A stretch of 64,000 nt of DNA from an uncultured Mycoplasmatota bacterium (GCA_900551525.1 URWD01000002.1:1152-65151), one strand, 5' to 3'; numbered from the stretch's first letter, positions 7,733 to 46,427 are shown. The notes: generated by a model from the letters alone, not told the origin. Made by a program: numbers and translations.

Positions 7733-8494
7733 ATGCATAGTTTTAAAAAATCTGCAATAATTGCTTTTTCATCACTATTTTTACTAACAAATGTAAACGC
7801 AGCTACATGTGGTTATGAAGAAAAAGCAAAGTTAAATAATGAAATAACAAATGTAAAGGCAAATTATGAAATTAAAGAAAGGGTAATGAATAAAGACGAA
7901 TATACAATTTCCGATGCTTTAATTGGAACTGAATACGAAGATACGTATGAAGCCACAACAGAATATATTCAAGTAAATATTTTGAATTTAACTGAAAATA
8001 TGTATGTTGAAGTAACAAATGATTATAACGATGATAAAGCTATATATCAATATAGTGACACAAAAAACGGGAACATATCATTTGATTGGCATGAAATTGA
8101 TGAACTGGTAACATATACTATTAAGGTTTATGCCTCAAGCGCTACAGGATGTGAAGGAACGATACTAAAAACATTGTATCAAGCTTTACCAAGGTATAAT
8201 GATTACTCAACATATGATATTTGTAAAAATATTCCTGATTCGTATTTATGTCAAAGGTATGTAACATATGAAAATATCGGTTTTGATGTTTTTACTGGTA
8301 GAATATATAAAGAAGTAGAAAAGAAAATTCAAAAAGAAGAAGAAACTAAAGAAAATGAAAAATGGTATAAAAAGGTTCAAAACTTTATTGTTAAACATAA
8401 AGTGCCATTTATCATCGGGGGAACAATATTGGTTGTCGCAGTTGGAAGTACAACATATATAATAATAAAGAAACGTAGGAGAAGTATAATATGA
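7733..8494 (+). CDS. Secreted protein with C-terminal TM anchor and 4 Cys; first gene of the operon (unknown function)
   Basis: The start is ATG 7733 (alternative GTG 7724), preceded by a G-rich RBS (GGTGGG). It has the signal peptide AIIAFSSLFLLTNVNA/ATC and the C-terminal anchor PFIIGGTILVVAVGSTTYIII followed by KKRRRS. There is no LPXTG motif. Confidence 0.6.
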   Translation: MHSFKKSAIIAFSSLFLLTNVNAATCGYEEKAKLNNEITNVKANYEIKERVMNKDEYTISDALIGTEYEDTYEATTEYIQVNILNLTENMYVEVTNDYNDDKAIYQYSDTKNGNISFDWHEIDELVTYTIKVYASSATGCEGTILKTLYQALPRYNDYSTYDICKNIPDSYLCQRYVTYENIGFDVFTGRIYKEVEKKIQKEEETKENEKWYKKVQNFIVKHKVPFIIGGTILVVAVGSTTYIIIKKRRRSII

Positions 8495-11400: not shown

Positions 11401-11937
11401 TTAGACGATTTAAATATAATAGTTAAAACAATTACTACAACAGATGTAAATGCAGCAAATAGAACACATGGTTATAACTGGATTACATCAAGTAGTATGG
11501 AAGCATTACAATTATTAACTAAAAAAGCTTCAATGACAATTAGTGAAATTGAAGAAATAAATGAAATGATATATGATGATAAGACAACAGATGGATCAAC
11601 ACTTGGATTTAGTATTAAATTAACACCTGAAATAATAAATAAAATTACAGCATATAACAAAGACAATGAAGATAATGGTGGTTATATAAATAACTCATTA
11701 ACATGTTATGATGCCACAATTGATGGTGAAACATATAAAAACATTTATTGTTATAGCGAACTAATTGACAAGTTAGTTACTGAAAATGGTGATAATGTTA
11801 CAGTACTTCCGAGTAGAGTAAATGATGAAGCAAGACGTGCTAATGACACTGGAACTAGTGGTTATTGGACATTATGGTCAAATTATAGAATAGATAAAAC
11901 AAGTGAATCCGTAATCGGCGGACCATCTTGGAAATAA
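8491..11937 (+). CDS. 1148-aa secreted cysteine-rich protein (candidate filament-associated adhesin; function unknown)
   Basis: ATG overlaps the upstream TGA, and the RBS is AGGAGAAG. It has the signal peptide MKKNLKILIILLTIFIGFASADVKA and about 37 Cys by my count. Ten of those Cys fall within 39 residues (nt 11275-11391), including a tandem KDCPxCxxxC repeat. It has no TM and no LPXTG. Confidence 0.7.
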   Translation: MKKNLKILIILLTIFIGFASADVKARTIEEKEQFTKQASGKHSISGLSIFDGTTFGMWKYSFVDTSSENFVGYCMDPHKDASNGYKVDRILGDTAYTKRINAFDLGVLEIIKNGKNQYNDSLTFTVDGSSKTISGDSLYAATSIAVRAFALGVFGYGGDVESAKSSLVPYYTGVASAHITRGIQWASYNIDKINTITDTKCTGSVEDFRKCYEKTFIKGFLKNNWYKNSYNFKISSSSSEGYLVMYAAQSLFMKGFNRAYEVITGDVTTATVTATANPSTTDKTTTDNTIEEYYHQTIEFAQFDAQDGKIDNFTLTCQDCAKNNITLGNLEFFNPQINDWQVVSNINVLTAFDADGKTKSGKIELRFKVTRIKDDENCKSVNYKISYRYDDPSLKYIGALLKTSDTSKQRFFIIQKNDGNLKSEITGTIKCSASCDTELELPVCSYEEDDAVAKINGPTKIKTCIIDNQDDAGNTYQFTSDVGGVDNSYCKIYCKEDYAEIKLNPIVKNVKCGGYFKLTSKINGTKTCYTGSPNTTENSTNGKNSIDKEKYLQDIIAAQNKMIEGRDWILKAEAAWKTIHEHTVSCSCNGSYDYNHSHGSYAGIEAGTPTAEGYVPIKNATHSYSIGGGGACNVDWDECPNANGNGTHRCCGSANPTDGDSYSDVSNKIQSQYYNHGKQLIEEGFRAYEKALRDYNACTTAWTNEFAFAQEVRYYYDENRGKDNTNYAPYFDLLTGKDELQKLEKYGNEKVDTKITVCTGATNDKYECLNKNNEKTFDLSIDSNRKVDYNYNSSYGNVFATKPYTTCTVNGCETKNPYVSQAAFIKKEVTKEQKYITPTAFYQIAANGKVIAYDNYSIDKVQLEPLVNKLPISTSSVGGGVFKLLVENLGEFYDKKDTYGRLIDYNGVNETKSVAYAVGVNAFDGEYVCYYENTCRPKDCPNCDFVCEGDGCEWKDCPSCNISCVNCIFNLDDLNIIVKTITTTDVNAANRTHGYNWITSSSMEALQLLTKKASMTISEIEEINEMIYDDKTTDGSTLGFSIKLTPEIINKITAYNKDNEDNGGYINNSLTCYDATIDGETYKNIYCYSELIDKLVTENGDNVTVLPSRVNDEARRANDTGTSGYWTLWSNYRIDKTSESVIGGPSWK

Positions 11938-11948
11938 GGGGTGACTAA

Positions 11949-12362
11949 ATGAAGAATGCATTCTGGGCATACTGGTTGATACTATTAGGTATAGTAATCG
12001 TAGTAATAATGCTACTTGTTCAAAATCTTACAACAAGTAGCACTCAAGATTACTATCTAATTAAAGAAATAACTGAAGCATCTATGATTGATGCAGTAGA
12101 TTATTCTTATTATAGAACCTATGGTGAAGTAAAAATAAACAAAGAAAAATTTTATGAAAGTTTTATACGTCGTTTTTCAGAAAATGCCGCATTAAACACA
12201 ACTTACACAGTAAGCTTTTATGGAGTTTATGAAGCTCCCCCAAAAGCTAGTGTAGAAATTAAAAGTAAATCTAATACATTCAATGTTGTAGGTGATTCAA
12301 CTACATTTGATATGGTAGAAAGAATAGATGCAATACTTGAAGGTAATACACTTGATGAATAA
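11949..12362 (+). CDS. N-terminally anchored small protein, possibly pseudopilin-like
   Basis: RBS GGGGTG precedes the start. FWAYWLILLGIVIVVIMLLV is a TM, followed by a ~100-aa extracytoplasmic domain. Confidence 0.45.
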   Translation: MKNAFWAYWLILLGIVIVVIMLLVQNLTTSSTQDYYLIKEITEASMIDAVDYSYYRTYGEVKINKEKFYESFIRRFSENAALNTTYTVSFYGVYEAPPKASVEIKSKSNTFNVVGDSTTFDMVERIDAILEGNTLDE

Positions 12363-12379
12363 CATAAGGAGGAATAAAA

Positions 12380-13150
12380 ATGGGTGGTAAGAAAAATGTA
12401 TTTACAAAGTTTTTAACAAATAAAACAACAGTTACGTTAGTAGGTATTGTTCTAGGACTAGGAGTTTTAGTGGGATTTTACATATATCGTGTTAATAAAC
12501 AAGTAAATCCCACCCGTATTCCTGTTGCTAAAAGAGCTATAAGTGCTACTGAAGAAATAACAAAAGATGACATCGAATATGTCAAAGTTAGTAAAAGTTT
12601 CTTAAAAAAAAGAGATGTTTATCAATCAGTAACAAATTTAGTTGGTAAATATGTTTCAACTGGAACATCTATTCCTAAGGGAGGAATGTTCTATACAGCT
12701 CAAGTTGTTGAAAAAAAGGAATTACCAAATGCTATATTTGATGAAATACCTGAAGGATATACAATCTATCAATTAAAAGTAGATAATAATACAACATATG
12801 CTAATTCAATATATCCTGGTGATAAAATAGATTTATGGCTTAAAACAACTGAAAATGGTATTTTAGTTTTTGGTGAATTTATATCAAATATTGAGGTCTT
12901 AGCAGTTCGTGATAATGCTGGTCAAAATGTTTTTGATGTTACAAGTGGAAGAACTCCAGCATGGTTATTATTTGCTGTAAAGACTGATTTATATCGTTAT
13001 TTAAAACTAGCTGAAAGCATATCTGGGATGACTATTATTCCGGTTCCAAAAAATAATTTGGCAAATCCAGATGTTGGGTCAACTGAATATACAAGTCAAG
13101 AACTTATAGATATTCTAGATAGACAAACTCTTAGAATGGAGGCCCAATAA
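12380..13150 (+). CDS. cpaB: Flp pilus assembly protein CpaB-like (SAF domain), paralog 1
   Basis: RBS AAGGAGG precedes the start. It has an N-terminal TM, the SAF-like segment IPVAKRAISATEEITKDDIEYVKV, and a C-terminal beta-rich RcpC/CpaB-like part. Confidence 0.6.
   Translation: MGGKKNVFTKFLTNKTTVTLVGIVLGLGVLVGFYIYRVNKQVNPTRIPVAKRAISATEEITKDDIEYVKVSKSFLKKRDVYQSVTNLVGKYVSTGTSIPKGGMFYTAQVVEKKELPNAIFDEIPEGYTIYQLKVDNNTTYANSIYPGDKIDLWLKTTENGILVFGEFISNIEVLAVRDNAGQNVFDVTSGRTPAWLLFAVKTDLYRYLKLAESISGMTIIPVPKNNLANPDVGSTEYTSQELIDILDRQTLRMEAQ
12792..12846. repeat. 55-nt patch nearly identical (54/55) to 13562-13616
   Basis: CAACATATGCTAAtTCAATATATCCTGGTGATAAAATAGATTTATGGCTTAAAAC, with a single t/c difference at 12805/13575. 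The flanking paralog sequence is clearly diverged. Confidence 0.9.
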
Positions 13151-13959
13151 TGAATAATATCTTAGCAAAAATTAAAAATTTATTTCTTAATAGAAATACT
13201 GTTACAATATTGGGCGTTATAGCTGGTGTTATAGCATTATGGTTTGCTTATAGTATAACTTTAGACAAAGCTGTAAAACCTCAAAAAGTGCCAGTTGCAG
13301 CCAAAGATTTAACTGCAGGAACAATTATAACAAAAGAAGATATTGAATATGTTGAAGTAAATTCTGATGTATTAAAAAAGGCAAGTGTAGTAACTAGTTC
13401 TTCACAACTTATTGGTTATTATGTAACAAATAATACATCAGTAGTTCGTGGTTCAATGTTTTACAAAAGTCAAGTTGTAACAAAAGATAAATTAATTGAA
13501 AGAGATTTGGAAACAGTCCCAGAAGGTTATAGACTTTACTGGCTAAAAGTAGACAATGCTTCAACATATGCTAACTCAATATATCCTGGTGATAAAATAG
13601 ATTTATGGCTTAAAACTAAGAATGAAGGCAAATATGTATACGAAGAATTTATAACAAATATTGAAGTTCTTAGTGTTAAAGATTCAAAAGGACAAAATGT
13701 TTTTGATGTATCAAGCGGAAGAACTCCAGCAGTACTTGTATTTGCAGTAACAGATGAAATGTTCTCATATTTAAGTAAAATAGGTTATTTAAGTGGTATG
13801 GATTTATATCCAGTTCCAATTAATAAAAAGAATTCAGATAAAGATGCTACTACAGAAATAACAAATGATGCTTTAAGAACATTAATCGATAGCCAAGCTA
13901 GAAATGTTACACCAGATACAAATGAATCAAATAATGATAATAATACAAATAATGAATAA
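13150..13959 (+). CDS. cpaB: Flp pilus assembly protein CpaB-like (SAF domain), paralog 2
   Basis: The start overlaps the upstream stop (TAATG). The architecture matches 12380-13150: VPVAAKDLTAGTIITKEDIEYVEV, and it shares the block YANSIYPGDKIDLWLKT. Confidence 0.6.
   Translation: MNNILAKIKNLFLNRNTVTILGVIAGVIALWFAYSITLDKAVKPQKVPVAAKDLTAGTIITKEDIEYVEVNSDVLKKASVVTSSSQLIGYYVTNNTSVVRGSMFYKSQVVTKDKLIERDLETVPEGYRLYWLKVDNASTYANSIYPGDKIDLWLKTKNEGKYVYEEFITNIEVLSVKDSKGQNVFDVSSGRTPAVLVFAVTDEMFSYLSKIGYLSGMDLYPVPINKKNSDKDATTEITNDALRTLIDSQARNVTPDTNESNNDNNTNNE
13562..13616. repeat. Second copy of the 55-nt conserved patch (see 12792-12846)
   Basis: Direct comparison of the two stretches gives an offset of exactly 770 nt. 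Confidence 0.9.
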
Positions 13960-13965
13960 AAGAGG

Positions 13966-15072
13966 GTGTTACTAGTGAATGATGCTGTATTTTCACAAAT
14001 AGATTTTGGACCTTTAAAAGAGTTTTTAGAAGAAGATAACATAACTGACGTATCATATTCTAATGGTGGTCAAGTTTGGCTAAAAACTCTTGATAAAGGT
14101 ATATATAGGGTTGAAAGACCAGAAATAAATAATGCTTTAATGGAAAAGCTAGCTTTTCAATGTTCAAATGTTATGGGTAAAACATTTAATATGGCCCATC
14201 CATTTTTGGATGCTGAATCTGCAGAACTTCGTTTAAACTTTGTTCATGAATCTATAGCCACAAATGGTATTTGTTGCGTTATAAGAAAGACGCCTGCCAA
14301 AATCCGTCTAAACAAAGATAAACTGATAAATGAAAAATATGTAACAGAGGATTTACATGACTTTTTAATGACTTGTGTTGAAGGACACTGTAATATTATT
14401 GTAAGTGGGGAAACTGGATCAGGTAAAACAGAACTTGTTAAATACTTAGCCGCTCATACAAAAGAAAATGAAAAAATAATAACAATTGAAGATACTCTAG
14501 AACTTCACTTAGATAAAATATTTCCACATCGTGATATTGTTGCTATGAAAACAAATAATATTGCATCTTACTCAGATGTACTAGTAACATGTATGCGACA
14601 AAACCCAAGATGGATTTTACTATCCGAAGTTCGTTCAGCAGAAGCAGTTACAGCAGTACGTAACTCAATATCATCTGGACACAACATTATATCAACAATT
14701 CACTCAGATAGAGCTTTAAACATACCAATGCGTTTATATAGTTTGCTAGAAAACAGTCAAGATATAGACCAATTCTTAAAGTCAATTCACAGATATGTTC
14801 AAATTGGTGTTCATGTTAAAGGTTACATGAGTAAAGAATTAGGTAGATTCCAACGTGAAATAATCGAAGTCGTAGAATTTTATGTTGATGAAAATAACGA
14901 AGCAAAATCCAATATTATCTTTAAAAAAAGTTTAGATGGCAAGTTCAGTTTTAATAACCCAAGTAAATATTTAATTGACTATTTAGGTGTTCAAGGTGTA
15001 ACATTAAAACCAGATTATTTTGTCAAATCAAAAAATGACACAAATTCAGAAGCTGAAATAGAAAGCTTATAA
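13966..15072 (+). CDS. cpaF: CpaF/TadA-type (VirB11-like) type II/IV secretion ATPase
   Basis: It has Walker A VSGETGSGKTE, Walker B / Asp box RWILLSEVR and His box SGHNIISTIHS, at ~365 aa. The start is GTG 13966 or in-frame GTG 13975; the RBS AAGAGGG at 13960-13966 overlaps GTG 13966, so it favours 13975. Confidence 0.85.
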   Translation: MLLVNDAVFSQIDFGPLKEFLEEDNITDVSYSNGGQVWLKTLDKGIYRVERPEINNALMEKLAFQCSNVMGKTFNMAHPFLDAESAELRLNFVHESIATNGICCVIRKTPAKIRLNKDKLINEKYVTEDLHDFLMTCVEGHCNIIVSGETGSGKTELVKYLAAHTKENEKIITIEDTLELHLDKIFPHRDIVAMKTNNIASYSDVLVTCMRQNPRWILLSEVRSAEAVTAVRNSISSGHNIISTIHSDRALNIPMRLYSLLENSQDIDQFLKSIHRYVQIGVHVKGYMSKELGRFQREIIEVVEFYVDENNEAKSNIIFKKSLDGKFSFNNPSKYLIDYLGVQGVTLKPDYFVKSKNDTNSEAEIESL

Positions 15073-15090
15073 CAGAAAGGAGCGTTTAAT

Positions 15091-16014
15091 ATGTTTACAG
15101 TTAATTTAACAAGTTATTTACCAGAATTGTTAATACTATTAGCAATTGCTACAGTGGTTTTAATAGCTCGTCGAAATCCTGGTGAAAACGTATATAAATA
15201 TGTAACAAATAAAGCAACTGATATGTATGATAAATACGCTCCATACTCATTTAAAATGGTAAGAGAAAAAGCAGTTGAATTAGGACAAGAATATACTCCA
15301 AGACAATATTTAACACAAGTTATAATTCTTGGTGGTATAGCAGCTTTAGTAGGATATTTTTACTTTTATAGTATTGTCATTGCTGTAATATATGCAATTG
15401 TAGCCATAGCATTTATACCATATCTTGCTTATTTAAGACTACAAAGAGTGTATAGTGAATATATATTTGAACAAATACAAACATATACAACAAATGTTAT
15501 AATGGAATTTAATACAACTCAAAGTTTTGTTAAAGCTCTTGAAGGTGTTAGAGATTCAGGGATTCTTGAAGAACCAGTTGTTAGTGATGTCAAAAAGATG
15601 ATTGAAATGTCATATCAAAATGGTACCATAGATGAATCAATAACTTATTTTAATAGCAAATACCCATTTTACATGGTAAAAAATATGCATCAATTATTCC
15701 TACAAATAACCAAAGAAGGTGCCAGAGATTCAGGACAAGCATTAGAAAATATGTCACTTGATATTGATGCCTTAGTAGAAGGTGTATATCGTGACCAAAT
15801 GGACAGAAATAATTTCCATGGCAGATTCCTAAGATTCGGTTTAATTTTATATTTACTCGTTATAGTTTTAAGATTCATGTTAGGTGAAGACAATTATATT
15901 AAATTACTAGATATATGGTATGTACAAATTATTTTACATGCTATTGTCATTATAAATGCTTTCTTTATGTTAAGTGGAGAAAAATACTATAATGAAGATG
16001 TAGGAGGAGAATAA
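15091..16014 (+). CDS. tadB: TadB-like platform protein (T2SS-F family)
   Basis: RBS AAAGGAG precedes the start. It is polytopic, with an N-terminal TM, a central TM pair and a C-terminal TM pair. The cytoplasmic helical domain is TTNVIMEFNTTQSFVKALEGV..., and the gene sits directly after the ATPase. Confidence 0.6.
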   Translation: MFTVNLTSYLPELLILLAIATVVLIARRNPGENVYKYVTNKATDMYDKYAPYSFKMVREKAVELGQEYTPRQYLTQVIILGGIAALVGYFYFYSIVIAVIYAIVAIAFIPYLAYLRLQRVYSEYIFEQIQTYTTNVIMEFNTTQSFVKALEGVRDSGILEEPVVSDVKKMIEMSYQNGTIDESITYFNSKYPFYMVKNMHQLFLQITKEGARDSGQALENMSLDIDALVEGVYRDQMDRNNFHGRFLRFGLILYLLVIVLRFMLGEDNYIKLLDIWYVQIILHAIVIINAFFMLSGEKYYNEDVGGE

Positions 16015-16802
16015 TGCAAATAGAAGTTATTATTGTCGCTGTAATCGTATTTGGTATAATGACTATAACTGGTCAAATAAGTATTAATCAGCTTATAAGT
16101 GATAATCAAATGCTTTTTATGAAGTTAAAAGAAAAAGATTGGGATTTTCTAGTCAGAGCCAAGTATGGAAATAATGTTAATCCAGACATTCTCTTTAATA
16201 AAAGAATAAAAAATGCTCTAATTACTATGGCTATAGCATTTGCCTTTTTAATCAAAGATTTAAATGCTGTTAAAGTATTATTAATATTTGTTCTAGGAGT
16301 GTTTATCTTTAAAACATCTTATAATGATATAAAAAAATATTATCAACGACATATGTCTGAAATAGACTCGATGTTACCACATTATTTAAAAAACCTAGAA
16401 ATATTAATTCAACATTATACTGTACCAGTTGCTATTGGTAAATCAATGGCTGAATCACCAGAAATATTTAAAGATGGATTACAAGAAATGATTGACTCTA
16501 TAAATTCTGGGGATGATACGATCGAACCATATATGGAATTTGCTAGAAAGTATCCAGTACGTGATTCAATGCGTATGATGCGTTTATTATATCGTCTAAG
16601 TTTAGGACGTCAAGAAAGAAAACAAGAACAAATACTAACATTTTCAAGATCAATATCTTCACTTCAACAAAAAGCTCGTGAAACAAGATACAAAAATAGA
16701 CTAGAAAAAATGGAAGGCAAAACCATGAGTATGCTTATAACAACTGGGGTAGGATTAATGATATTACTAGTTTTAGCTGTTATACAACTTATGGACATAT
16801 AA
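16014..16802 (+). CDS. tadC: TadC-like platform protein (T2SS-F family)
   Basis: TAATG overlap with the upstream gene. It has LPHYLKNLEILIQHYTVPVAIGKSMAESPEIFKDGLQEMIDSINSGDDTIEPYMEFARKYP and a C-terminal TM, typical of GspF/TadC domains. Confidence 0.65.
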   Translation: MQIEVIIVAVIVFGIMTITGQISINQLISDNQMLFMKLKEKDWDFLVRAKYGNNVNPDILFNKRIKNALITMAIAFAFLIKDLNAVKVLLIFVLGVFIFKTSYNDIKKYYQRHMSEIDSMLPHYLKNLEILIQHYTVPVAIGKSMAESPEIFKDGLQEMIDSINSGDDTIEPYMEFARKYPVRDSMRMMRLLYRLSLGRQERKQEQILTFSRSISSLQQKARETRYKNRLEKMEGKTMSMLITTGVGLMILLVLAVIQLMDI

Positions 16803-16826
16803 ATTTACAAAAAGTTTAAAATATAA

Positions 16827-16855
16827 TTGATATTTTAAGGAAATTAAGTTATAAT
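16827..16855 (+). promoter_or_regulatory. Internal sigma-A-type promoter in front of the pilin genes
   Basis: TTGATA (16827-16832), a 17-nt spacer, then TATAAT (16850-16855). A strong RBS GGAGG (16871-16875) follows. Confidence 0.55.
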
Positions 16856-16882
16856 AAAAATATATTAAAAGGAGGATAACAA

Positions 16883-17128
16883 ATGAAAGAAGCTACTGGA
16901 GAATTAAATATGACTGTAGTTACTGTAGTTGCAATTGCTGCTGTTGGTGCTTTCTTCTATTTCTTTATCTGGCCTGGTATTCAAGCTGGACTTTCAAGAA
17001 ATACTTGCCTAAATCTATGTCCAGGCGGAGAATTGGACACAGCCCAAGGACGTGGTGGTGTAGATGTTAATAACAGAACTTGTTTTTGTGCAGATGGAAC
17101 ACAAATAGATTTTGGCGACGAAGAATAA
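16883..17128 (+). CDS. Small Flp-sized pilin candidate 1 (81 aa, 4 Cys in the head)
   Basis: The layout is a short polar leader MKEATGELNMT, a ~22-aa hydrophobic helix VVTVVAIAAVGAFFYFFIWPGI, and a small Cys-containing C-terminal part. It sits in a Tad-like operon. Confidence 0.5.
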   Translation: MKEATGELNMTVVTVVAIAAVGAFFYFFIWPGIQAGLSRNTCLNLCPGGELDTAQGRGGVDVNNRTCFCADGTQIDFGDEE

Positions 17129-17150
17129 GACAAAACATAAGAGGTGAAAA

Positions 17151-17411
17151 ATGAAAGAGGCTACAGGAGAATTAAATATGACGATAATAGTTTCTATATC
17201 GATCGGTATCTTGGCAGCCTTTTTTTTCGGCTTTTTATGGCCAATGATTAATGGAAATTTTCAAAAAAATTCACAATGTAGCAAAGCTATATGTGATTGT
17301 AGTACTGAAGTAAGAAATACAATAGAAAACGAAACTGGTCAAAAAAATCATTGTTTATGCAGAAATAGTGCAACAGATGAAAACACTTTTTATTGCCCAT
17401 TCAAAGGTTAG
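17151..17411 (+). CDS. Small Flp-sized pilin candidate 2 (86 aa, 6 Cys in the head)
   Basis: RBS AGAGGTGA precedes the start. The leader MKEATGELNMT is identical to pilin 1 at the protein level and nearly so at the DNA level. A hydrophobic helix follows, then a divergent Cys-rich head. Confidence 0.5.
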   Translation: MKEATGELNMTIIVSISIGILAAFFFGFLWPMINGNFQKNSQCSKAICDCSTEVRNTIENETGQKNHCLCRNSATDENTFYCPFKG

Positions 17412-17420
17412 GAGGAAATT

Positions 17421-17918
17421 ATGAAAGAATCGATGAGTGTAACATATATATTTCAAATAGTAATACTATTTATTCTATTATTTACAGCAATAATGGCTTT
17501 AACAATAAATAATTCCAACGCCTTTGGAATTAAAGACCAAATAGTAAATATATTAGAAGCAAATGGGGGAAATTACTTAGAAGACGGAAATTTAGATGAA
17601 GAAATAATAAATTTAATAGAAAGTACATCATATCGTACAACTGGAAAATGCGATGAAGATTATCAAGGTTTTGATAGAACTGGAGCTGCTGTTTCATCTA
17701 ATCAAGATGCATCAATATGCATAAAAGAAGTAAATGCAACAGATGGTGTAGATAATTATCTATCGGATATTTTTGGCACTGGTAAAGTTGCAACAGGTGA
17801 TTTTATGCCAGGCAAATATTATCAAATAGTAGTATTTTTCCAATTAGATTTACCAGTTGTAAAACAAGTTTATAATTTTAAATCTAAAGCTGAAACAAAA
17901 GTTATATACCAAAAATAA
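17421..17918 (+). CDS. TadE-like pseudopilin candidate 1
   Basis: RBS AGGAGG precedes the start. The N-terminal helix is TYIFQIVILFILLFTAIMALTI, followed by a ~135-aa domain. It shares TGKC(D/P)E(D/N)... with 17932-18384. Confidence 0.4.
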   Translation: MKESMSVTYIFQIVILFILLFTAIMALTINNSNAFGIKDQIVNILEANGGNYLEDGNLDEEIINLIESTSYRTTGKCDEDYQGFDRTGAAVSSNQDASICIKEVNATDGVDNYLSDIFGTGKVATGDFMPGKYYQIVVFFQLDLPVVKQVYNFKSKAETKVIYQK

Positions 17919-17931
17919 GGAGAGAAATTAA

Positions 17932-18384
17932 ATGAAAACAGTAAGTGAATCAACATGGACATTTCAAATGATTATCTTCTTCATTCTAATATTTGCTTGT
18001 TTTCTAACTTTAGTTTTAAGTTATAATAAAGCTTATACAATAAAGAATCGTATGCTTAATATTATTGAAAAATATGAAGGTGTAACACCAACATCAGCTG
18101 AGCTAATAAATGACTACATATATAATAAAGGATATACCAATACTGGTAAATGTCCAGAAAACTGGATGGGAGCAACAAATATAGATGGAGAATTTGAGTT
18201 ATCAAAAAGTGATAACAGATATTTATATTGCTTTAAAAAAAGTTATAAAAATAATTTAGTATATTATGATGTAAAAGTTTTTTTTAGATTTAATTTACCT
18301 GTTATAGGTAGTATAGCAAACTATGAAATAGATGGAACAACAAAGACTTTTATAGGTGCAGAAGATCAAATAGAGGAGTATTAA
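17932..18384 (+). CDS. TadE-like pseudopilin candidate 2
   Basis: RBS AAGGAGAG precedes the start. The N-terminal helix is TWTFQMIIFFILIFACFLTLVL. It is a paralog of 17421-17918. Confidence 0.4.
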   Translation: MKTVSESTWTFQMIIFFILIFACFLTLVLSYNKAYTIKNRMLNIIEKYEGVTPTSAELINDYIYNKGYTNTGKCPENWMGATNIDGEFELSKSDNRYLYCFKKSYKNNLVYYDVKVFFRFNLPVIGSIANYEIDGTTKTFIGAEDQIEEY

Positions 18385-18385
18385 T

Positions 18386-19375
18386 ATGAATGTAATAGTA
18401 TCAAATAAATATCAATCATTATTATCAAGTTTAAATATTGATGTAATTAAAAGTATAAATGGAGAATTTACAGTAGAAGAATTAGTAAGTCAATTTCAAA
18501 GTTTTTACTTTAATAAAATGATTATAGACATAACAGCAATAAAAGGTTATGAAGAAATAACAGTAATGCAAAATTTATCTGTAAATTTTGATATGTCTAA
18601 AGTTATTTTATTACTAGATGATTCAGAAAAAGTTAATTCTCCAGTATATATATCACAATTAATATCTATGGGAATATACAATTTCACCAGTGATATAAAT
18701 ACAGTAAAATACCTAATAGATAATCCCAATCAATACAAAGATGTAGCAAACTATCATAATATAAGTGGATTTAAGAAACCAGTATTAAATGAAAGATCTG
18801 TTGATAATACTCGTGGTAAAATGGGGCAAAAGATTATTGGCTTTAAAAACATTACAGAACATGCTGGTGCAACAACACTAATATATTTGCTTAAATTACA
18901 CTTAGAAAAGGCATATAATGTTAAAGCTGTAGAAATAGATAAAAATGACTTTATATATTTTAATGATAATACACTTGAAAGTGTATCAAGTTTAGGTTTT
19001 AATGATTTTTTAAGTAATAATACCAATTATGATATAATTTTAGTTGATTTAAATGATGGAAACGTATCTGAGTACTGTCATGATATAATTTATTTAATTG
19101 AACCAGGTCTTATTAAATTAAATAAGTTAATTAGAGAAGACAATGCTATATTTACTAAATTAAATGAAAAAAAGATAGTTCTTAACAGAAGTGTACTTGA
19201 CACAAAAGATGTACAAGACTTTGAAAAAGAAAGTGGAAGTAAAGTTTTTTTCAATATGCCTTGTTTAGATGATAAGTTAGATGATCAAATGGTAGTTAAT
19301 GCTTTTTTAACAGCCTTAGGTTTTAGTAGAATTGATGCAAATGGAAGTTCAGGAATATTTAGTATATTCAAATAG
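18386..19375 (+). CDS. TadZ/CpaE-like protein: receiver-like N-domain plus ParA/MinD-like domain with degenerate Walker A
   Basis: RBS GAGGAG precedes the start. The N-terminus has a flavodoxin-like pattern (MNVIVSN...KMIIDITA...VILLLDD). The C-terminus has IIGFKNITEHAGATTLIYLL (where KGGxGKTT is expected), DIILVDLN, IYLIEPG and KIVLNR. Confidence 0.5.
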   Translation: MNVIVSNKYQSLLSSLNIDVIKSINGEFTVEELVSQFQSFYFNKMIIDITAIKGYEEITVMQNLSVNFDMSKVILLLDDSEKVNSPVYISQLISMGIYNFTSDINTVKYLIDNPNQYKDVANYHNISGFKKPVLNERSVDNTRGKMGQKIIGFKNITEHAGATTLIYLLKLHLEKAYNVKAVEIDKNDFIYFNDNTLESVSSLGFNDFLSNNTNYDIILVDLNDGNVSEYCHDIIYLIEPGLIKLNKLIREDNAIFTKLNEKKIVLNRSVLDTKDVQDFEKESGSKVFFNMPCLDDKLDDQMVVNAFLTALGFSRIDANGSSGIFSIFK

Positions 19376-19389
19376 GGAGGTAATGGAAT

Positions 19390-19740
19390 ATGAATTTTTG
19401 TTATAAGACTGCAAGTGTATGGTTATTTATTGGTAAATTATTATTCATTTTAAAGATATTAATACCAATAGCTATTATAGTATTAGGAAGCATAGATTTA
19501 GGAAAAGCAGTAATTTCAAGTGATGATAAATCAATAAAAACAGCTAGTACCAAGCTATTAAAAAGAATAGTAGCTGGAATATGCATTTTTTTCATACCAG
19601 TTATTATAAAAGTGTTATTTTCTATGATTGGCATTATAAGTGATGAAATAAAAAATGACTATATAAATTGTATAAACTGCATTACAGATCCGTATAACAA
19701 TTGTGATGCATCGTATGAAGGCAATATATACAAAAAATAA
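19390..19740 (+). CDS. 2-TM small membrane protein with N-terminal Cys and C-terminal C-x2-C-x6-C tail (family member 1)
   Basis: RBS GGGAGG precedes the start. Sequence: MNFCYKTASVWLFIGKLLFILKILIPIAIIVLGSIDLGKAVISSDDKSIK...RIVAGICIFFIPVIIKVLFSMIG...INCINCITDPYNNC. Confidence 0.6.
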   Translation: MNFCYKTASVWLFIGKLLFILKILIPIAIIVLGSIDLGKAVISSDDKSIKTASTKLLKRIVAGICIFFIPVIIKVLFSMIGIISDEIKNDYINCINCITDPYNNCDASYEGNIYKK

Positions 19741-19796: not shown

Positions 19797-20135
19797 ATGA
19801 ATTTTTGTGAAGATGCTGGTTCAGTTTGGTATACTCTTGGAATGTTTATGTTAGTATTCAAAGTTGTTATTCCAGTACTATTGATTGTTTTTGGAATGGT
19901 AGACTTAGGAAAAGCTGTAATATCAAGTGATGACAAAGCTGTATCAAAGGCTGCTAAAACATTATTAAATCGTGTTATAGCTGGGGTATGTATTTTCTTT
20001 ATTCCAACTATTGTAGGATTAGTATTTAAAATGGTTGGGGCATTTGGTGAGGTTAAAAATCAATATGATTATTGTGCTGCATGCGTAAGTAATCCAACCG
20101 GTGATAAATGTTCAGGTATAAAAAATAATGGCTAA
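19797..20135 (+). CDS. 2-TM small membrane protein with N-terminal Cys and C-terminal C-x2-C-x6-C tail (family member 2)
   Basis: Sequence: MNFCEDAGSVWYTLGMFMLVFKVVIPVLLIVFGMVDLGKAVISSDDKAVS...RVIAGVCIFFIPTIVGLVFKMVG...YCAACVSNPTGDKC. It is a paralog of 19390-19740. Confidence 0.6.
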   Translation: MNFCEDAGSVWYTLGMFMLVFKVVIPVLLIVFGMVDLGKAVISSDDKAVSKAAKTLLNRVIAGVCIFFIPTIVGLVFKMVGAFGEVKNQYDYCAACVSNPTGDKCSGIKNNG

Positions 20136-20298: not shown

Positions 20299-20325
20299 TA
20301 AAAAATAGAGCTTATTCAGCTCTAT
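20299..20325 (-). terminator. Terminator of the 514-aa minus-strand gene
   Basis: Stem ATAGAGC (20305-20311) pairs with GCTCTAT (20319-20325) and spans the stop codon. The A-run 20300-20305 gives a U-run on the minus strand. Confidence 0.5.
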
Positions 20326-21856
20326 CTTCATATTCTCCAGTATAAGTATATCCTGCAAGTGATTTTTCTTTGCTCCATTTATATTCAAATGTTCTATGTG
20401 TCCAAGTATATTCAGTGTCAGTATCTATAATAGCATAGTCTTCATACTTAGATGCATTAGAAGCTAAATCCCATTTACATTTGCTTTCTCTTGTATAACT
20501 AACATCAAATTTCAATGGTACAAAATATACATTTTGACTTAAATTGCTAGCATAATATGGTGATACACCATTTAAATTTTTATAATTAATTGTAATTGTT
20601 GTAGCATAATTTCCTTCAGCTCTATTATAATAAGCTCCAGAAACTTCAAATGTAAAGTTATTTTTCTTTAATGAAGTATTTCTAAATGTTGATGCATTAT
20701 TTATTGCAACATTATATTTTCCAGTATTACCAGTCATATATAGGTTACCACGATTGTTAATATAAGCTTGATAGTCAGTATTTGAATTACTGAAATAAGA
20801 TTTACTATTGCCTACAATAGCAACACTATTAACATCACTAGGTAAATCTAGGAATTGAACTTCATAGTTATATTTACCAACTTTAGTAGTATCAGTAACA
20901 TATCCAGTTGAATAATAAGTTTTTTCATATTCTTTACAATAATTATTAGTTTCTACCAATTGTTTTTTATTTTCAGCATTAGAAGCATTAGAGTAACCGT
21001 TTTCCCAATCACTATATTTTACATATTTATAATATCTAACCTTGGTAGGTGTAGGATTAGGTTTGTTGTTATCGTTATTATTATTATTATTATTGTTATT
21101 GTTATTATTATTGTTATTGTTGCAATTTGTTTGACAACAACCATTTGAACAAGTTATTTTTATTGTAACCTTAGTAGTAACTGTTGTTTTAGTACTTGTA
21201 CTAGTGCTTGAACTATTTCCTTTACTAGTATTAGTATTATTTGAACTATTGTTACTATTTGTATTATTGTTAGTATTACTATTATTCTTATTTGTATTAG
21301 AATTTGTATTATTAGAGTTATTATTGTTGTTATTGTTATTATCAACAACATCAGTATTAGTTTTTGTATTATCTACTGTACAAGTTCCATTATCACATGA
21401 AGTCTTTTCAATAGTAGTAACAATAAAGTCTGATTGTTTTCCACAAGTTAAACTAACTTTTAATGCATAATTACCATCAGCAGTTTTAGTAGTTTGAATG
21501 TAACTTGAATTATTATCACAAGTTTTACCATCGTTAGTAAAATCGATTAATAACTTTTGGTTAATCATTTGTGCTAGTGTTACTTTTTCAGTTGCACCAA
21601 CTTTTTCAGGTAATTTTGATTTTGTGAAATATTCAAATGCTGCAGTTTTCATAGTGTTTATATTATTAATATATTTACTATTACTATCAGCTAATGTGTT
21701 ACTAGATTTAGTTGAACTATTGCCGGTTACTTTAACAAATATCCAACCAGCTATAAACACAATAACTGCAAGAATCACAAGTTTAATTGCAAGTGATCCC
21801 CAATTTAAACTTAAACTTTTCTTTCCATCTTCGTACATATAACGTACCCCCTTCAT
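20312..21856 (-). CDS. N-anchored surface protein with a pilin-like proximal domain, long Asn/Ser/Thr low-complexity spacers and a beta-rich C-terminal domain
   Basis: RBS GAGGA lies 8 nt upstream of ATG 21856. The TM is LAIKLVILAVIVFIAGWIFV. It has a Cys-bracketed domain (...DGKTCDNN...KVSLTCGKQ), poly-N runs, and a 250-aa Y/N/T-rich C-terminus. Confidence 0.7.
   Translation of the reverse strand: MKGVRYMYEDGKKSLSLNWGSLAIKLVILAVIVFIAGWIFVKVTGNSSTKSSNTLADSNSKYINNINTMKTAAFEYFTKSKLPEKVGATEKVTLAQMINQKLLIDFTNDGKTCDNNSSYIQTTKTADGNYALKVSLTCGKQSDFIVTTIEKTSCDNGTCTVDNTKTNTDVVDNNNNNNNNSNNTNSNTNKNNSNTNNNTNSNNSSNNTNTSKGNSSSTSTSTKTTVTTKVTIKITCSNGCCQTNCNNNNNNNNNNNNNNNNDNNKPNPTPTKVRYYKYVKYSDWENGYSNASNAENKKQLVETNNYCKEYEKTYYSTGYVTDTTKVGKYNYEVQFLDLPSDVNSVAIVGNSKSYFSNSNTDYQAYINNRGNLYMTGNTGKYNVAINNASTFRNTSLKKNNFTFEVSGAYYNRAEGNYATTITINYKNLNGVSPYYASNLSQNVYFVPLKFDVSYTRESKCKWDLASNASKYEDYAIIDTDTEYTWTHRTFEYKWSKEKSLAGYTYTGEYEDRAE
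21063..21123. repeat. Imperfect trinucleotide (ATT/GTT on +, i.e. AAT/AAC Asn codons on -) tract
   Basis: gttgttatcgttattattattattattattgttattgttattattattgttattgttg encodes an uninterrupted run of 15 Asn within NNNNNNNNNNNNNNNDNN. Confidence 0.9.
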
Positions 21857-43453: not shown

Positions 43454-43504
43454 ATTATCACCAAAATAATTGCTATAATAATTGTATAAGATAAGGTGAT
43501 ATTA

Positions 43505-44812
43505 ATGAAGTATATGAAAATAATGATACTTGCAATAACTCTTTTACTATTAACCGGATGTGGGTGGAGTGATGTCCAAGATAAGTATGAAGATTTATTA
43601 AATCAAAATATTTCTTGTACTTATTATACAGAAGAAAAGAGTGCCTCAGACGATTTTTTTGGAGTGGGAACCATGGTATTATCTGCAGATTATAATGGTT
43701 TTTATCTAAATTTGAACAATAATAAAAAAATAGTTTTATATGACAATAATGGAGAAAATACTTATTTAGACTTTCCAACTCAATATGTTTATATGCAAAC
43801 AGATTTCAAAGAAAGTTATTTCAAAAAATATCTAGAAAATAATAGCTGTCCTTCTACAATTTATATTTATATGGGAGGAGATCCTTATTTTTCAGTTAAT
43901 AGTTGCGATGGAATAGGAGCTTGCAGTTCTTATGTTCTTAAACAAAATCAAGTAACAGATGAAAATGGTGAAAAGATTGATTGTCACTATCCAAATGCAG
44001 TTGCGTGTGCTAAAACATCAACAGAAAATACTAAACCTAAGTATTATTTAGAGTTTGGTTATTATAAAAAATCAAATGGTACAATATCAAAATATTTTGG
44101 TGTTTCATCAGATAAAAACTACAAAAATATGGAAGTTGCTATAGATGACGATGAATTGACAGTTTATGAAAATTTATCATTTTTTACGGTTACGTCAGAT
44201 GCTTCAAAAGAAATATATCTTTCTAACAATAAATTTATTGCCATGGATAAGTTAATCATAAAACCAACTGTGACAACCAACACAACTTACTTTATTACGG
44301 GACCAAATTCAACAAATTATGGAGATTTAGATGAAGTTGGTAACGAGGAAGTTCCAAACATTGATCCGGACAATTCAGAAATTGAAAATACACCGCAAGA
44401 GGATTTGGATATAACAGAAGTTGAAGTATGTGGTGCAGGAACAACATCGCTTCTTGTATTTCAAGTAATAGGTTATATAATATTAATAATAAAAATATTA
44501 GTACCAATTATATTAATAGTACTTGGAAGCATAGATTTAGGAAAAGCATCATTAAGTGGAGATGACAAAGCAGTAAAAGAAGCAGCAATTAGCTTCGCTA
44601 AAAGAGTATTAATTGGATTAATAATATTCTTCGTACCAACAATATTAGATTTCTTTTTAGGACTTGTTGAAGGCACAACTGATGTATCCAGTAAATACCG
44701 TGGATGTACAGATTGTGTACTAAATCCAAATAATAGTAGTAAATGTTCTCCAAAAAAGTTGAATGATAATAACTCTGCCCAAGATGGTGTTTCTACTAGC
44801 GGAAAATTTTAG
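43505..44812 (+). CDS. Lipoprotein with a ~300-aa extracellular domain fused to the 2-TM / C-x2-C-x6-C module (family member 3)
   Basis: AAGG 43493-43496 precedes ATG 43505. The lipobox is LLLTGC. The C-terminus reads EVCGAGTTSLLVFQVIGYIILIIKILVPIILIVLGSIDLGKASLSGDDKAVK...LIGLIIFFVPTILDFFLGLV...GCTDCVLNPNNSSKC. Confidence 0.7.
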   Translation: MKYMKIMILAITLLLLTGCGWSDVQDKYEDLLNQNISCTYYTEEKSASDDFFGVGTMVLSADYNGFYLNLNNNKKIVLYDNNGENTYLDFPTQYVYMQTDFKESYFKKYLENNSCPSTIYIYMGGDPYFSVNSCDGIGACSSYVLKQNQVTDENGEKIDCHYPNAVACAKTSTENTKPKYYLEFGYYKKSNGTISKYFGVSSDKNYKNMEVAIDDDELTVYENLSFFTVTSDASKEIYLSNNKFIAMDKLIIKPTVTTNTTYFITGPNSTNYGDLDEVGNEEVPNIDPDNSEIENTPQEDLDITEVEVCGAGTTSLLVFQVIGYIILIIKILVPIILIVLGSIDLGKASLSGDDKAVKEAAISFAKRVLIGLIIFFVPTILDFFLGLVEGTTDVSSKYRGCTDCVLNPNNSSKCSPKKLNDNNSAQDGVSTSGKF

Positions 44813-44822
44813 TAAAAGAGGT
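44384..44822. repeat. 439-nt direct repeat, copy 1 (437/439 identical to 45614-46052)
   Basis: A base-by-base comparison finds differences only at 44778 (c vs t) and 44796 (c vs g). The repeat covers the last 143 codons, the stop, and 10 nt beyond it including AAAAGAGGT. Confidence 0.95.
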
Positions 44823-44830
44823 GAAATAGA

Positions 44831-46042
44831 GTGAAAAAATATTTTTGCATAATAACTTTGTTAGCTTTATTTATTTTGCCAACATCAATTAAGGCAGAAG
44901 AATATGATTGCTACTATTATTCCAAAAATAAAAGAAGTGAGGTTGGATATAATCTTCAAGAGAAACATGTAGGATTATTTGGAAATAATTCAATTGATAT
45001 CATTAAATTTAAAGGAAAAGCACTAAACAAAAGTACAACTGGAAACAAAAGTGTTGGAGATCAAATTCCCGATAAATGTTATGAATATGTTTCAATAAAA
45101 GCATCCAAAGTTATGACTTCAGGAAGAACAACATATTCTTTTAAATTAGGTGATGATATTACTGATGTAAGTTCCCAAAGTAATGCTGATGATGTTATTT
45201 TAAAACTAAATGGTTTTCTAGAGGATAGTGAAGAAAAAATTTGTCAAAATGAAGTTAAGTCAAGCATTAATTATAACAATGACTTAGATGAACTAGATTT
45301 AGATATAAAGGCAACATATGCAGTTAGATTTAAGTTTGTAACAAAAGAAGATGGCAAAAGAGAATTTATTGTTTCATATGATGGAGCTGAAAAAAGTAGT
45401 GGGGAATTTGAAAGTACAAACGTGCCAAGTGTCAGTTTAGATAATGTAAAAAATGATAATGGTGATATTGCCACATTCGGTGTAGATAGTGAATATGTGG
45501 AAAAATTTTGGGGAGCATGCGTTGCACCATCCATGTTCAACATCAAAAAAAGTGGTTCAACCTATACCTTGTTTTCAGATAGAAAAGAAGATAATGAAAA
45601 TTATCAAAAAGAAGAAAATACACCGCAAGAGGATTTGGATATAACAGAAGTTGAAGTATGTGGTGCAGGAACAACATCGCTTCTTGTATTTCAAGTAATA
45701 GGTTATATAATATTAATAATAAAAATATTAGTACCAATTATATTAATAGTACTTGGAAGCATAGATTTAGGAAAAGCATCATTAAGTGGAGATGACAAAG
45801 CAGTAAAAGAAGCAGCAATTAGCTTCGCTAAAAGAGTATTAATTGGATTAATAATATTCTTCGTACCAACAATATTAGATTTCTTTTTAGGACTTGTTGA
45901 AGGCACAACTGATGTATCCAGTAAATACCGTGGATGTACAGATTGTGTACTAAATCCAAATAATAGTAGTAAATGTTCTCCAAAAAAGTTGAATGATAAT
46001 AACTCTGTCCAAGATGGTGTTTCTAGTAGCGGAAAATTTTAG
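44831..46042 (+). CDS. Secreted protein with a ~260-aa extracellular domain fused to the 2-TM / C-x2-C-x6-C module (family member 4)
   Basis: RBS AAAAGAGGTG precedes GTG 44831. The signal peptide is LLALFILPTSIKA/EE. The C-terminal 143 aa differ from those of 43505-44812 at only 2 residues. Confidence 0.7.
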   Translation: MKKYFCIITLLALFILPTSIKAEEYDCYYYSKNKRSEVGYNLQEKHVGLFGNNSIDIIKFKGKALNKSTTGNKSVGDQIPDKCYEYVSIKASKVMTSGRTTYSFKLGDDITDVSSQSNADDVILKLNGFLEDSEEKICQNEVKSSINYNNDLDELDLDIKATYAVRFKFVTKEDGKREFIVSYDGAEKSSGEFESTNVPSVSLDNVKNDNGDIATFGVDSEYVEKFWGACVAPSMFNIKKSGSTYTLFSDRKEDNENYQKEENTPQEDLDITEVEVCGAGTTSLLVFQVIGYIILIIKILVPIILIVLGSIDLGKASLSGDDKAVKEAAISFAKRVLIGLIIFFVPTILDFFLGLVEGTTDVSSKYRGCTDCVLNPNNSSKCSPKKLNDNNSVQDGVSSSGKF

Positions 46043-46052
46043 TAAAAGAGGT
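45614..46052. repeat. 439-nt direct repeat, copy 2
   Basis: See 44384-44822. The offset is exactly 1230 nt. Confidence 0.95.
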
Positions 46053-46102
46053 CATTTTTAGCAAAAAAATGCTAGATTTGACTTTTTTTTAGTTAACATT
46101 TG

Positions 46103-46150
46103 TGATATAATTTAACTATCAGTTTTAAGTGGGCAGGAAATCCCACTTTT
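46103..46150 (+). promoter_or_regulatory. Extended -10 promoter candidate followed by a leader hairpin/terminator upstream of rimP-nusA
   Basis: TGaTATAAT lies at 46103-46111. Stem AAGTGGG (46127-46133) pairs with CCCACTT (46142-46148), with an 8-nt loop, followed by TTTTATTATT. Confidence 0.4.
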
Positions 46151-46172
46151 ATTATTAGTTATGGAGGTGTTT

Positions 46173-46427
46173 ATGAAACTAGTATTAGACAAACTTAAAA
46201 TTGATTTACAAGAGGCTTTTGAAAAGACAGACATAATTGTTGATGACATAACTTTTGAAGAAAAAGGAAAATATAAGTTTTTAACAGTAACTTTAGATAA
46301 AATCGGAGGTATTGATTTAGAAACCATAGTTGAAGCCACCAAAGTTGTAAATGAAGTAGTGGATAAAGCCGATATAACAGATGATAGCTACATATTAGAT
46401 GTAGTAAGTAAAGAAAGAGGAGAGTAA
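46173..46427 (+). CDS. rimP: Ribosome maturation factor RimP, N-terminal domain only
   Basis: RBS GGAGGTG 46163-46169 precedes ATG 46173. FLTVTLDKIGGIDLETIVEATKVVNEVVDKADITDDSYILDVVS matches the RimP N-domain. The ORF stops 2 nt before nusA, so there is no room for the C-terminal domain. Confidence 0.6.
   Translation: MKLVLDKLKIDLQEAFEKTDIIVDDITFEEKGKYKFLTVTLDKIGGIDLETIVEATKVVNEVVDKADITDDSYILDVVSKERGE

Follow-up and report, generated by a model that had tools for sequence, protein, structure and literature searches.

In Neisseria pilE/pilS and in mycoplasma surface lipoprotein families, a conserved segment provides the homology for recombination among variable surface paralogues. Patescibacteria carry arrays of 2–11 genes for VirB2-like pilins of type IV secretion systems (T4SSs), and recent reviews describe them as the only monoderms with such arrays, Gram-positive T4SSs being without pilin genes. 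The VirB2 paralogues of Anaplasma vary in an exposed surface region ahead of the N-terminal Cys and at the C-terminus. From gut Clostridia a 'predicted secretion operon' with CpaF, PilC/GspF and DUF5411 has been described (PMC9523054). Here we analyze a stretch of 64,000 nucleotides (nt) from an uncultured Mycoplasmatota bacterium (GCA_900551525.1 URWD01000002.1:1152-65151; hereafter the window, with positions counted from its first letter). Two tandem genes predicted to encode surface proteins, g1 and g2, lie between recX and rimP. Their outward-facing domains (ectodomains) have no detectable homology, while both proteins end in a near-identical module with two predicted transmembrane (TM) helices, and this module recurs at the end of a Tad-like operon. 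Gene conversion between the two paralogues probably keeps the module uniform within the genome, a reading to which we assign a probability of about 0.85.

Near-identity of the g1 and g2 modules

The 3' ends of g1 and g2 form a direct repeat of 439 nt (44384–44822 and 45614–46052, offset by 1230 nt) with exactly two mismatches. The tandem pair and its parts are laid out as follows.

43505..44812, + strand: g1, 435 amino acids (aa) from ATG, with an AAGGTGA ribosome-binding site 7 nt upstream
44384..44822, + strand: repeat copy 1, the 3' end of g1, including the end of the linker and Cys309
Parts of repeat copy 1, + strand: TM1 44450–44527, cytoplasmic tip 44528–44605, TM2 44606–44668, CTDC 44705–44716, then Cys414, the tail, the stop codon and 10 nt with the g2 ribosome-binding site
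44831..46042, + strand: g2, 403 aa with a GTG start and a signal peptide ending IKA/EE
45614..46052, + strand: repeat copy 2, the 3' end of g2, with TM1 45680–45757, TM2 45836–45898 and CTDC 45935–45946

Both mismatches are non-synonymous and fall in the C-terminal tail, where 44778 C / 46008 T changes Ala to Val and 44796 C / 46026 G changes Thr to Ser. Over 142 codons the two copies in the window genome have zero synonymous differences. The repeat edges are sharp, with background-level identity directly 5' of 44384 and 3' of 44822, and the identity extends 10 nt beyond the TAG stop, through TAAAAGAGGT. Coordinates and alignment confirm the initial annotation on this point, which had described a near-identical 3' cassette of this length with two non-synonymous tail substitutions and 10 nt of shared sequence past the stop. 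Purifying selection alone, without recombination, would be in line with the strong conservation of the hairpin at the protein level across the family. As an explanation of the near-identity it is nevertheless barely credible: synonymous differences are absent although the modules have only 61–73% nucleotide identity to those of sister species, the identity reaches 10 nt into non-coding sequence, and ~13 mostly synonymous sites split two haplotypes that segregate in both genes.

These haplotypes emerged from g1/g2 pairs of 12 assemblies of the species, produced with SPAdes, MEGAHIT and other pipelines; all population data stem from short-read metagenome assemblies. The number of g1–g2 differences per genome was 2, 2, 2, 11, 22, 22 and 24, and it exceeded 30 in five strains whose g2 has a different tail that is 14 aa shorter. 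Outside the most uniform genomes the copies differ by 2.5–5.5% or bear different tails. Sister-strain contigs from three samples (L001–L003) are collinear with the window and 99.4% identical over 13 kb; here g1 and g2 differ at 11/439 sites, and the final 113 nt account for 10 of these (binomial P = 1e-5).

Repeat positions 1–383 contain 34 polymorphic sites, 20 with the same two alleles in both genes and 14 private to one gene, and none of the 34 is a fixed difference between the paralogues. Two deep, mostly synonymous haplotypes span sites 57–250, usually one per gene. The g1-type haplotype is found in both copies of the window, L001, L050 and L051, and in the mosaic L043 g1 bears the g2 haplotype at 57–250, so that both of its copies are g2-type. 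A TCAG haplotype at 304–308 occurs in g1 of L052, whose g2 reads ATAA, and in g2 of L048, whose g1 reads ATGA. At the protein level, the alleles NVTDKY, NVTNKY and DVSSKY, the ending SPQKLNE-stop and the tail variants AQ..ST, VQ..SS and AQ..SN were seen in both genes. Strain diversity (π) is 2.3–3.2% in the module and 0.35–0.63% in the ectodomains, thus 4–9 times higher in the module, with 1.0% for recX.

Compared across species, the modules have 100, 98, 90.5 and 78.8% nucleotide identity within genomes and 61–73% between genomes. Modules cluster by genome in three separate lineages, and ectodomains cluster by type. The ectodomain types are orthologous across genomes, as evidenced by L008_gB and L006_gA, which are 51% identical over their full length; the domains of g2 and L008_gA that begin with YDCYY are 35% identical.

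Within-genome likeness, shared polymorphisms, sharp tract boundaries and mosaic alleles, which define concerted evolution, were all found. These data indicate that the near-identity is maintained by recurrent, bidirectional gene conversion between the paralogues, acting on the module only, and in the window strain one haplotype has overwritten both copies. The initial annotation had named ongoing gene conversion confined to an anchor module next to a recent segmental duplication; shared polymorphisms, mosaic tracts and the grouping of modules by genome speak for the former. A duplication without conversion, in which the 5' halves were replaced or diverged and the 3' halves are too young to differ, would yield tandem direct copies that are 99.5% identical and have 10 nt in common past the stop, as seen in the window. 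It is very unlikely, as the ectodomains are unrelated and each type has orthologues in other species, as the copies differ at 2 to >30 sites among strains of the same species (most strains having at least 11–24 differences), as 20 polymorphisms are common to the paralogues and none is fixed, as mosaic tracts exist, and as modules group by genome in three separate lineages.

Repeat collapse or a misjoin during assembly could likewise have made the near-identity or the tandem layout. The 439-nt repeat exceeds typical read length, both mismatches lie ≤45 nt from the unique 3' flank, a distance over which assemblers can still phase them, a scaffold gap interrupts the g2 module of L049, and the low-coverage contig L041 skips g2. 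Moreover, collapsed repeats in short-read data or chimeras of strains can look like conversion in some tracts, which weighs against gene conversion as the source of all of them, and because an assembler may pop isolated single-nucleotide bubbles in the 394-nt identical core, 99.5% is an upper estimate. Against an artefact, the graph path from the g1 ectodomain through the repeat, the intergenic sequence with the g2 ectodomain and the repeat to rimP has a single traversal, and the tandem layout is present in at least 12 independent metagenome assemblies from different samples and several assemblers (SPAdes, MEGAHIT and others). Several assemblies keep 11–24 dense interior differences, which shows that assemblers do resolve divergent copies. 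Since the TCAG haplotype occurs in different genes, each time beside a different partner haplotype, collapse by an assembler cannot yield this pattern. An artefact is therefore improbable.

The initial annotation had suggested a check for deletion variants between the direct repeats, and no reliable one was found. In L041 (1366 nt, 1.7x coverage) the 3' portion of the g1 ectodomain leads through a single module into the flank downstream of g2, and this junction is that expected from a deletion between direct repeats. Low coverage and 641 nt of ABC-transporter-like, unrelated sequence at the 5' end led us to reject the contig as a probable chimera.

Ectodomains and the recX slot

g1 is composed of a β-rich ectodomain (aa 20–250), a disordered acidic linker (aa 253–314) and the C-terminal hairpin module. 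Its lipobox LLLTGC, with Cys19 read from the sequence as the putative lipidated residue, follows the lipoprotein pattern [LVI][ASTVI][GAS]C as MKYMKIMILAITLLLL-TGC and is conserved in the orthologues P0003, P0004, P0005 and P0007, the first three of which are 40–51% identical to g1. AlphaFold2 modeled the ectodomain with a confidence score (pLDDT) of 75–90 and placed helices at 313–351 and 354–387; a Foldseek search of the PDB gave no match for the ectodomain fold at E ≤ 1e-3. In g2 an orphan middle region separates the 'YDCYY' domain (~aa 24–115) from the C-terminal hairpin module that it shares with g1. The YDCYY domain is 30–35% identical to domains of L008_gA, L006_gA and L006_gB, and a word-indexed homologue search with the g2 ectodomain gave only its own strain-level cluster. 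BLASTP of g1 against g2 produced an alignment confined to the module, without detectable ectodomain homology, and hhalign among the three ectodomain types reached probabilities of 13–57% that covered the signal peptide or linker only. For the faint Cys-Tyr-Tyr resemblance between the ectodomains, noticed initially, this comparison gave no homology outside signal peptide and linker.

The window has 24–33% G+C and uses the standard genetic code. Homologues come solely from metagenomes and metagenome-assembled genomes, many from the human gut, under the labels uncultured Bacilli, 'Clostridium sp. CAG:609', 'Firmicutes CAG:321' and 'uncultured Tenericutes'; the source lineage appears to be small-genome gut Bacilli. 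All relatives examined at this locus have one or two module-bearing genes directly after ackA, a DHH-family gene and recX, followed downstream by rimP-nusA or a UvrD-type helicase gene. The species compared below apparently form a single genus in which AckA, DHH and NusA are 94–98% identical, yet the ectodomains in the slot are non-homologous. The slot contents are as follows.

Window species: the g1 and g2 pair
L011: a 451-aa protein of the 'YTTTGDKC' type
L012: a 489-aa hybrid with a YDCYY start and a g1-like continuation
L013 and L004: a 415-aa g1 orthologue
L014: a 308-aa protein of an unrelated type

Comparison of the ectodomain cassettes with relatives, as proposed in the initial annotation, hence revealed different genes between near-identical flanks. 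Since sister species with 94–98% identical flanks hold different slot genes, the recX slot reads as a replacement hotspot for ectodomains.

Several features of the module genes in relatives stood out besides. In L011 (10381–10520), the representative genome of its species, a long Gly/Lys-rich tail after the module is interrupted by an in-frame TAG and the frame runs on to ...GGGGHGRSGKF, while P0014 encodes an uninterrupted version of this tail. SGKF or SGTF closes several of the long tails and may represent a conserved C-terminal motif. More distant relatives have extra module genes upstream of ackA (L015 and L016, 6308–6703; L017, 857–2421).

The flanking genes encode RecX, with three RecX_HTH Pfam domains, and RimP_N. 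RimP (46161–46427) has merely 88 aa in the window and in relatives and consists of the RimP_N domain alone. Two putative signals border the pair.

43470..43478, + strand: extended -10 promoter-like element TGCTATAAT just upstream of g1, read from the sequence
46044..46089, + strand: intrinsic terminator with the 5' arm AAAAGAGGUCA and a U-run; RNA fold with a free energy (ΔG) of -19.1 kcal/mol, z -7.05

TGCTATAAT may act as the g1 promoter; a promoter scan of the region found no enrichment over shuffled sequence. The 10 nt past the stop have a different role after each copy. After copy 1 they contain the g2 ribosome-binding site AAAGAGGT, within the final 8 nt of the repeat, as the initial annotation had stated. 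The same annotation considered the AAAAGAGGT after g2 orphaned, and this part did not stand: it contributes the 5' arm to a strong terminator in which UAAAAGAGGUCA pairs with UGACUUUUUUUU around an inner hairpin, and the terminator is conserved in single-gene species. A GGCCA...TGGC hairpin with a T-run follows the last slot gene in L004, L012, L013, L014 and L042, and a terminator with GGCCA...TGGC arms is also present after the short-tail g2 alleles. The window arms, GGTCA...TGAC, differ from these by a compensatory pair of changes. Because the long tail joins the terminator arm at the junction, this suggests that the long g2 tail and the ribosome-binding-site sequence were once copied from g1.

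Between the g2 terminator and rimP (46094–46160) lie a promoter-like TGTGATATAAT and an AAGTGGG...CCCACTT hairpin followed by U-rich sequence (ΔG -8.9 kcal/mol, z -2.1). Hairpin and TGTGATATAAT are conserved in L004 and L012–L014 and may be a leader or attenuator of the rimP-nusA-infB operon.

The hairpin module, the Tad-like operon and T4SS genes

The module has hydrophobic cores of 26 and 21 residues. The most conserved residues of the family sit at the hairpin tip (GSIDxGKA...DDKA, in motif form G-x-x-D-x-G-K-A), TM1 contains an invariant Lys and an invariant Pro, and four invariant or nearly invariant Cys flank the hairpin, one before TM1 and three after TM2. Both ends of the module are probably extracellular. 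The N end is assigned to the outside by N-terminal Sec or lipoprotein signals, and the C end by extracellular domains fused after the module. Such domains are a glucosaminidase in P0005 and P0007 and YDCYY in two L006 proteins; in g2 the YDCYY domain precedes the module. Other family members carry M23, C39-like or α/β-hydrolase domains, and in L017 (1240–2421) the module is N-terminal and precedes a 280-aa domain with GDS...GVNDL that reads as a GDSL-type hydrolase. P0005 and P0007 are themselves a tandem module pair at another locus (L055, 5765–9772; 597 and 598 aa), each with a g1-type lipoprotein ectodomain, the module and the C-terminal glucosaminidase.

A window-wide tblastn search found the module again, at ~42% aa identity, in two small open reading frames that end a Tad-like operon.

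11949..19375, + strand: Tad-like operon upstream of s1 and s2, from Pfam and NCBIfam matches
19390..19740, + strand: s1, a bare module of 116 aa and the first gene after the TadZ-position gene; tblastn 41%, module hidden Markov model (HMM) E = 1.4e-42
19797..20135, + strand: s2, a bare module of 112 aa, from tblastn; AlphaFold2 hairpin

This agrees with the initial annotation, which had equated the cassette with a module of the Tad-like operon. The s1 position is conserved in L019 and L020. For s2, AlphaFold2 (pLDDT 81.8) modeled helices at 8–43 and 46–81 and two short C-terminal helices that bear CxxC. The models thus have the two-helix hairpin that defines VirB2/TrbC-type pilins, with a topology deduced as above.

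The operon encodes DUF5411, two CpaB/RcpC proteins, a T2SSE ATPase (CpaF/VirB11-like), two polytopic membrane proteins, two small pilin-like proteins, two TadE-position proteins and one TadZ-position protein, in this order. A CpaF/TadA-type ATPase together with CpaB/RcpC, by which Tad systems are recognized, is present: the ATPase scores 100.9 bits against PF00437 (cut-off 24.9), and the second CpaB copy 31.6 bits against RcpC PF16976 (cut-off 28.8), with a further match to TIGR03177 at E = 3.7e-10. The ATPase scores about equally against VirB11, TadA and TrbB models, all below cut-off. Family matches are limited to DUF5411, CpaB and the ATPase. Pfam and NCBIfam gave no T2SSF, Flp or TadE family match for 15091–16802, 16883–17411 and 17421–18384, and none for the TadZ-position protein, so the TadB/C-, Flp-, TadE- and TadZ-position names are positional. 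The small pilin-position proteins (16883–17128 and 17151–17411) share an MKEATGELNMT start, which leads into a hydrophobic helix, and are conserved between species; they contain no Flp G/XXXXEY motif and match no Pfam or NCBIfam family. A prepilin peptidase was not found in the window.

Two further proteins border the operon. Directly upstream of DUF5411 (11949–12362) and CpaB, 8491–11937 encodes a secreted Cys-rich protein of 1148 aa without a family match, conserved at 46–63% in L019 and L020, which may serve the Tad-like system as an adhesin or fibre-associated protein. Converging on the operon end, 20312–21856 (- strand) encodes a membrane-anchored protein of 514 aa with long poly-Asn/Ser/Thr tracts, conserved in L019 (75%) and L020 (57%) and without a family match.

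The operon gene order is conserved in ~20 species. In most of them the TadZ-position gene is followed by a bare module (107–120 aa) and then by a gene with ectodomain and module (290–440 aa), in keeping with the initial proposal of interchangeable ectodomains on a common anchor. In the window genus, two bare modules close the operon, and the genes with an ectodomain are located in the recX slot instead. Sixteen loci continue with a 700-aa polytopic protein like the 'MMCAP2_0566 conjugal transfer protein' of a mycoplasma integrative and conjugative element (ICE; E = 8e-11), and then with a split VirB4 made of a 206-aa TraC-like piece and a 594-aa VirB4 (VirB4_plasma/Mbov_0397 E = 4e-102; CD1110-type E = 6e-52). 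These co-oriented clusters are L018, L021, L022, L024, L025, L030–L039 and L053 (e.g., L053 573–18078). In L053 an NlpC/P60 protein follows the cluster.

A module profile retrieved 9,704 representative clusters (at 50% identity) at E ≤ 1e-3, with three architectures: bare module, ectodomain plus module, and module plus ectodomain. The profile scan of genomes was built from six close module sequences. Every family member named by any source is called 'hypothetical', and this includes the source-named ones among the 223 homologues of s2. The only recurrent Pfam match is PF18895 (T4SS_pilin), in 6/17 members at E < 0.1 and 23/135 members at E < 1e-3, always near or below cut-off (best E = 1.1e-7). 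s2 matches PF18895 with E = 9e-4 and 19.7 bits (cut-off 26.6) and NF045849 (Mbov_0395 pilin-like) with 12.2 bits (cut-off 40), and g2 matches PF18895 with 10.1 bits. By these scores the module family borders on the Pfam T4SS_pilin and the NCBIfam 'pilin-like conjugal transfer protein' models. The module may be a monoderm counterpart of a VirB2-type subunit, for which the 16-locus gene order and the PF18895 matches are the best evidence.

Several results weigh against such a link. The scores of window proteins stay below the curated cut-off for every pilin family, and neither sequence profile nor Foldseek recovered a solved T4SS pilin in the PDB. The PDB sequence search with the module profile gave only spurious matches to helices of G-protein-coupled receptors; Foldseek with the g1 and s2 models gave nothing at E ≤ 1e-3 and no pilin among the matches listed, the hairpin matching generic two-helix proteins, e.g., HtrII, although simple helical hairpins are poor Foldseek queries. 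Beside the operon in the window, L019 and L020, tblastn (E < 1e-5) detected no VirB4 or VirB6-like gene, so the T4SS link comes from more distant species. The g1/g2 modules are not homogenized with the operon copies s1 and s2, to which they are only ~42% identical. A tblastn search of plasmid and phage collections with the module gave zero matches and thus no evidence that it is plasmid- or phage-borne.

If the module were a true polymerizing VirB2-type pilin, bare copies would build a fibre and g1 and g2 would be minor pilins that display ectodomains on it or at its tip, in the manner of VirB5 or of variant VirB2/TrwL paralogues. Several findings fit: PF18895 matches recur, the 16 loci with VirB6-like and VirB4 genes repeat the mycoplasma ICE order of pilin-like gene, MMCAP2_0566 and VirB4, both module ends would be outside the cell, the regions before the N-terminal Cys and at the C-terminus vary as in Anaplasma VirB2 paralogues, and Patescibacteria have arrays of such genes. 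We nonetheless consider it unlikely, as the scores stay below family cut-offs, Foldseek matched no solved pilin, a 300-aa domain on each subunit fits a VirB2-type helical lattice poorly, the window lineage has no adjacent VirB4, and Gram-positive T4SSs are generally described as being without pilins. A bolder extension, doubtful to a similar degree, is a hybrid Tad-like/T4SS envelope machine in a group of monoderms other than Patescibacteria, namely uncultured gut Bacilli with small genomes, in which VirB2-like hairpins would polymerize and subunits with fused ectodomains, among them g1 and g2, would sit on the fibre as exchangeable heads for recognition or for cutting cell walls. Were it true, the recX slot would be a cassette site whose shared anchor lets heads recombine in from other strains or species.

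A proposed shared anchor compared with known systems

On balance we lean towards an anchor or adaptor, in which g1 and g2 are surface proteins on a common module tied to an envelope machine. g1 and g2 would form a two-gene unit whose different ectodomains are exported via Sec signals, with g1 additionally lipidated and so tethered at both ends. The hairpin would insert with both ends outside, its conserved cytoplasmic tip contacting a Tad-like or T4SS component, and the module itself would dock into the envelope machine or be handled by it. The ectodomains would be interchangeable working ends with fast turnover, adhesin-like here and peptidoglycan hydrolases or esterases in relatives. Because all module proteins would have to fit the same partner, conversion that keeps paralogues uniform would be tolerated or favoured, and the outward domains would be free to be swapped while the module stays uniform in the genome. 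The shared module and the conserved recX and rimP flanks would offer the homology for importing new ectodomains.

The family is a very large, unannotated group of hairpins beside VirB4/VirB6-like genes and a Tad-like set in common human-gut Bacilli, and it would serve adhesin-like domains and peptidoglycan hydrolases alike as a universal anchor. The tandem pair offers a clean natural experiment in which the anchor evolves in concert and the outward domains are replaced wholesale between species, which would mark the anchor as a constrained interface. The ectodomains would be marked as targets of diversifying pressure, be it phage, immunity or the recognition of a host or partner. The module HMM and the recX slot provide handles for surveying surface variation in uncultured gut lineages.

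With VirB2/TrbC-type T4SS pilins, such as the PF18895 arrays of Patescibacteria and Mbov_0395/MMCAP2_0565 of mycoplasma ICEs, the family shares two hydrophobic helices, a short charged loop and ends predicted outside. Tandem paralogue arrays, weak recurrent HMM matches and, in relatives of the window, the adjoining VirB6-like (MMCAP2_0566-like) and VirB4 genes are further likenesses. It differs in that the window proteins score below the cut-offs and match no solved pilin by sequence or fold, in that many members bear ectodomains of 200–500 aa or enzyme domains at either end, and in that the genes follow a CpaB/CpaF Tad-like set, with no VirB4 adjacent in the window lineage. Pilin arrays of the candidate phyla radiation diverge (mean identity 25%), whereas the module core in the window is homogenized. 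The variant VirB2 and TrwL/TrwJ arrays of Anaplasma and Bartonella are likewise tandem paralogues, thought to vary surface recognition, and the variable positions in Anaplasma are the same two at which the window family attaches domains. Those arrays, however, consist of small pilins with point variation in diderm pathogens, in contrast to the whole-domain swaps and the concerted core in a monoderm commensal seen here.

Gene conversion among tandem surface-protein genes is in itself ordinary. Compared with Neisseria pilE/pilS and the mycoplasma lipoproteins, both copies are complete, expressed-looking genes and not silent donors, conversion homogenizes the anchor and not the variable part, and no programmed switching is indicated. 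The TANB77 'pilin' cluster (PMC11680825), which we considered as a counterpart, is a different system whose pilin-like proteins have a single transmembrane helix. The operon of PMC9523054 and monoderm Tad loci likewise combine DUF5411, CpaB and a CpaF-type ATPase in one gut-Firmicutes operon, but what has been described there includes neither the hairpin-module genes nor the T4SS continuation. Three features appear not to have been described before: the hairpin serving large ectodomains and cell-wall enzymes as a general anchor, its position between a Tad-like set and a VirB6/VirB4 set in monoderms other than Patescibacteria, and the concerted evolution of the module core.

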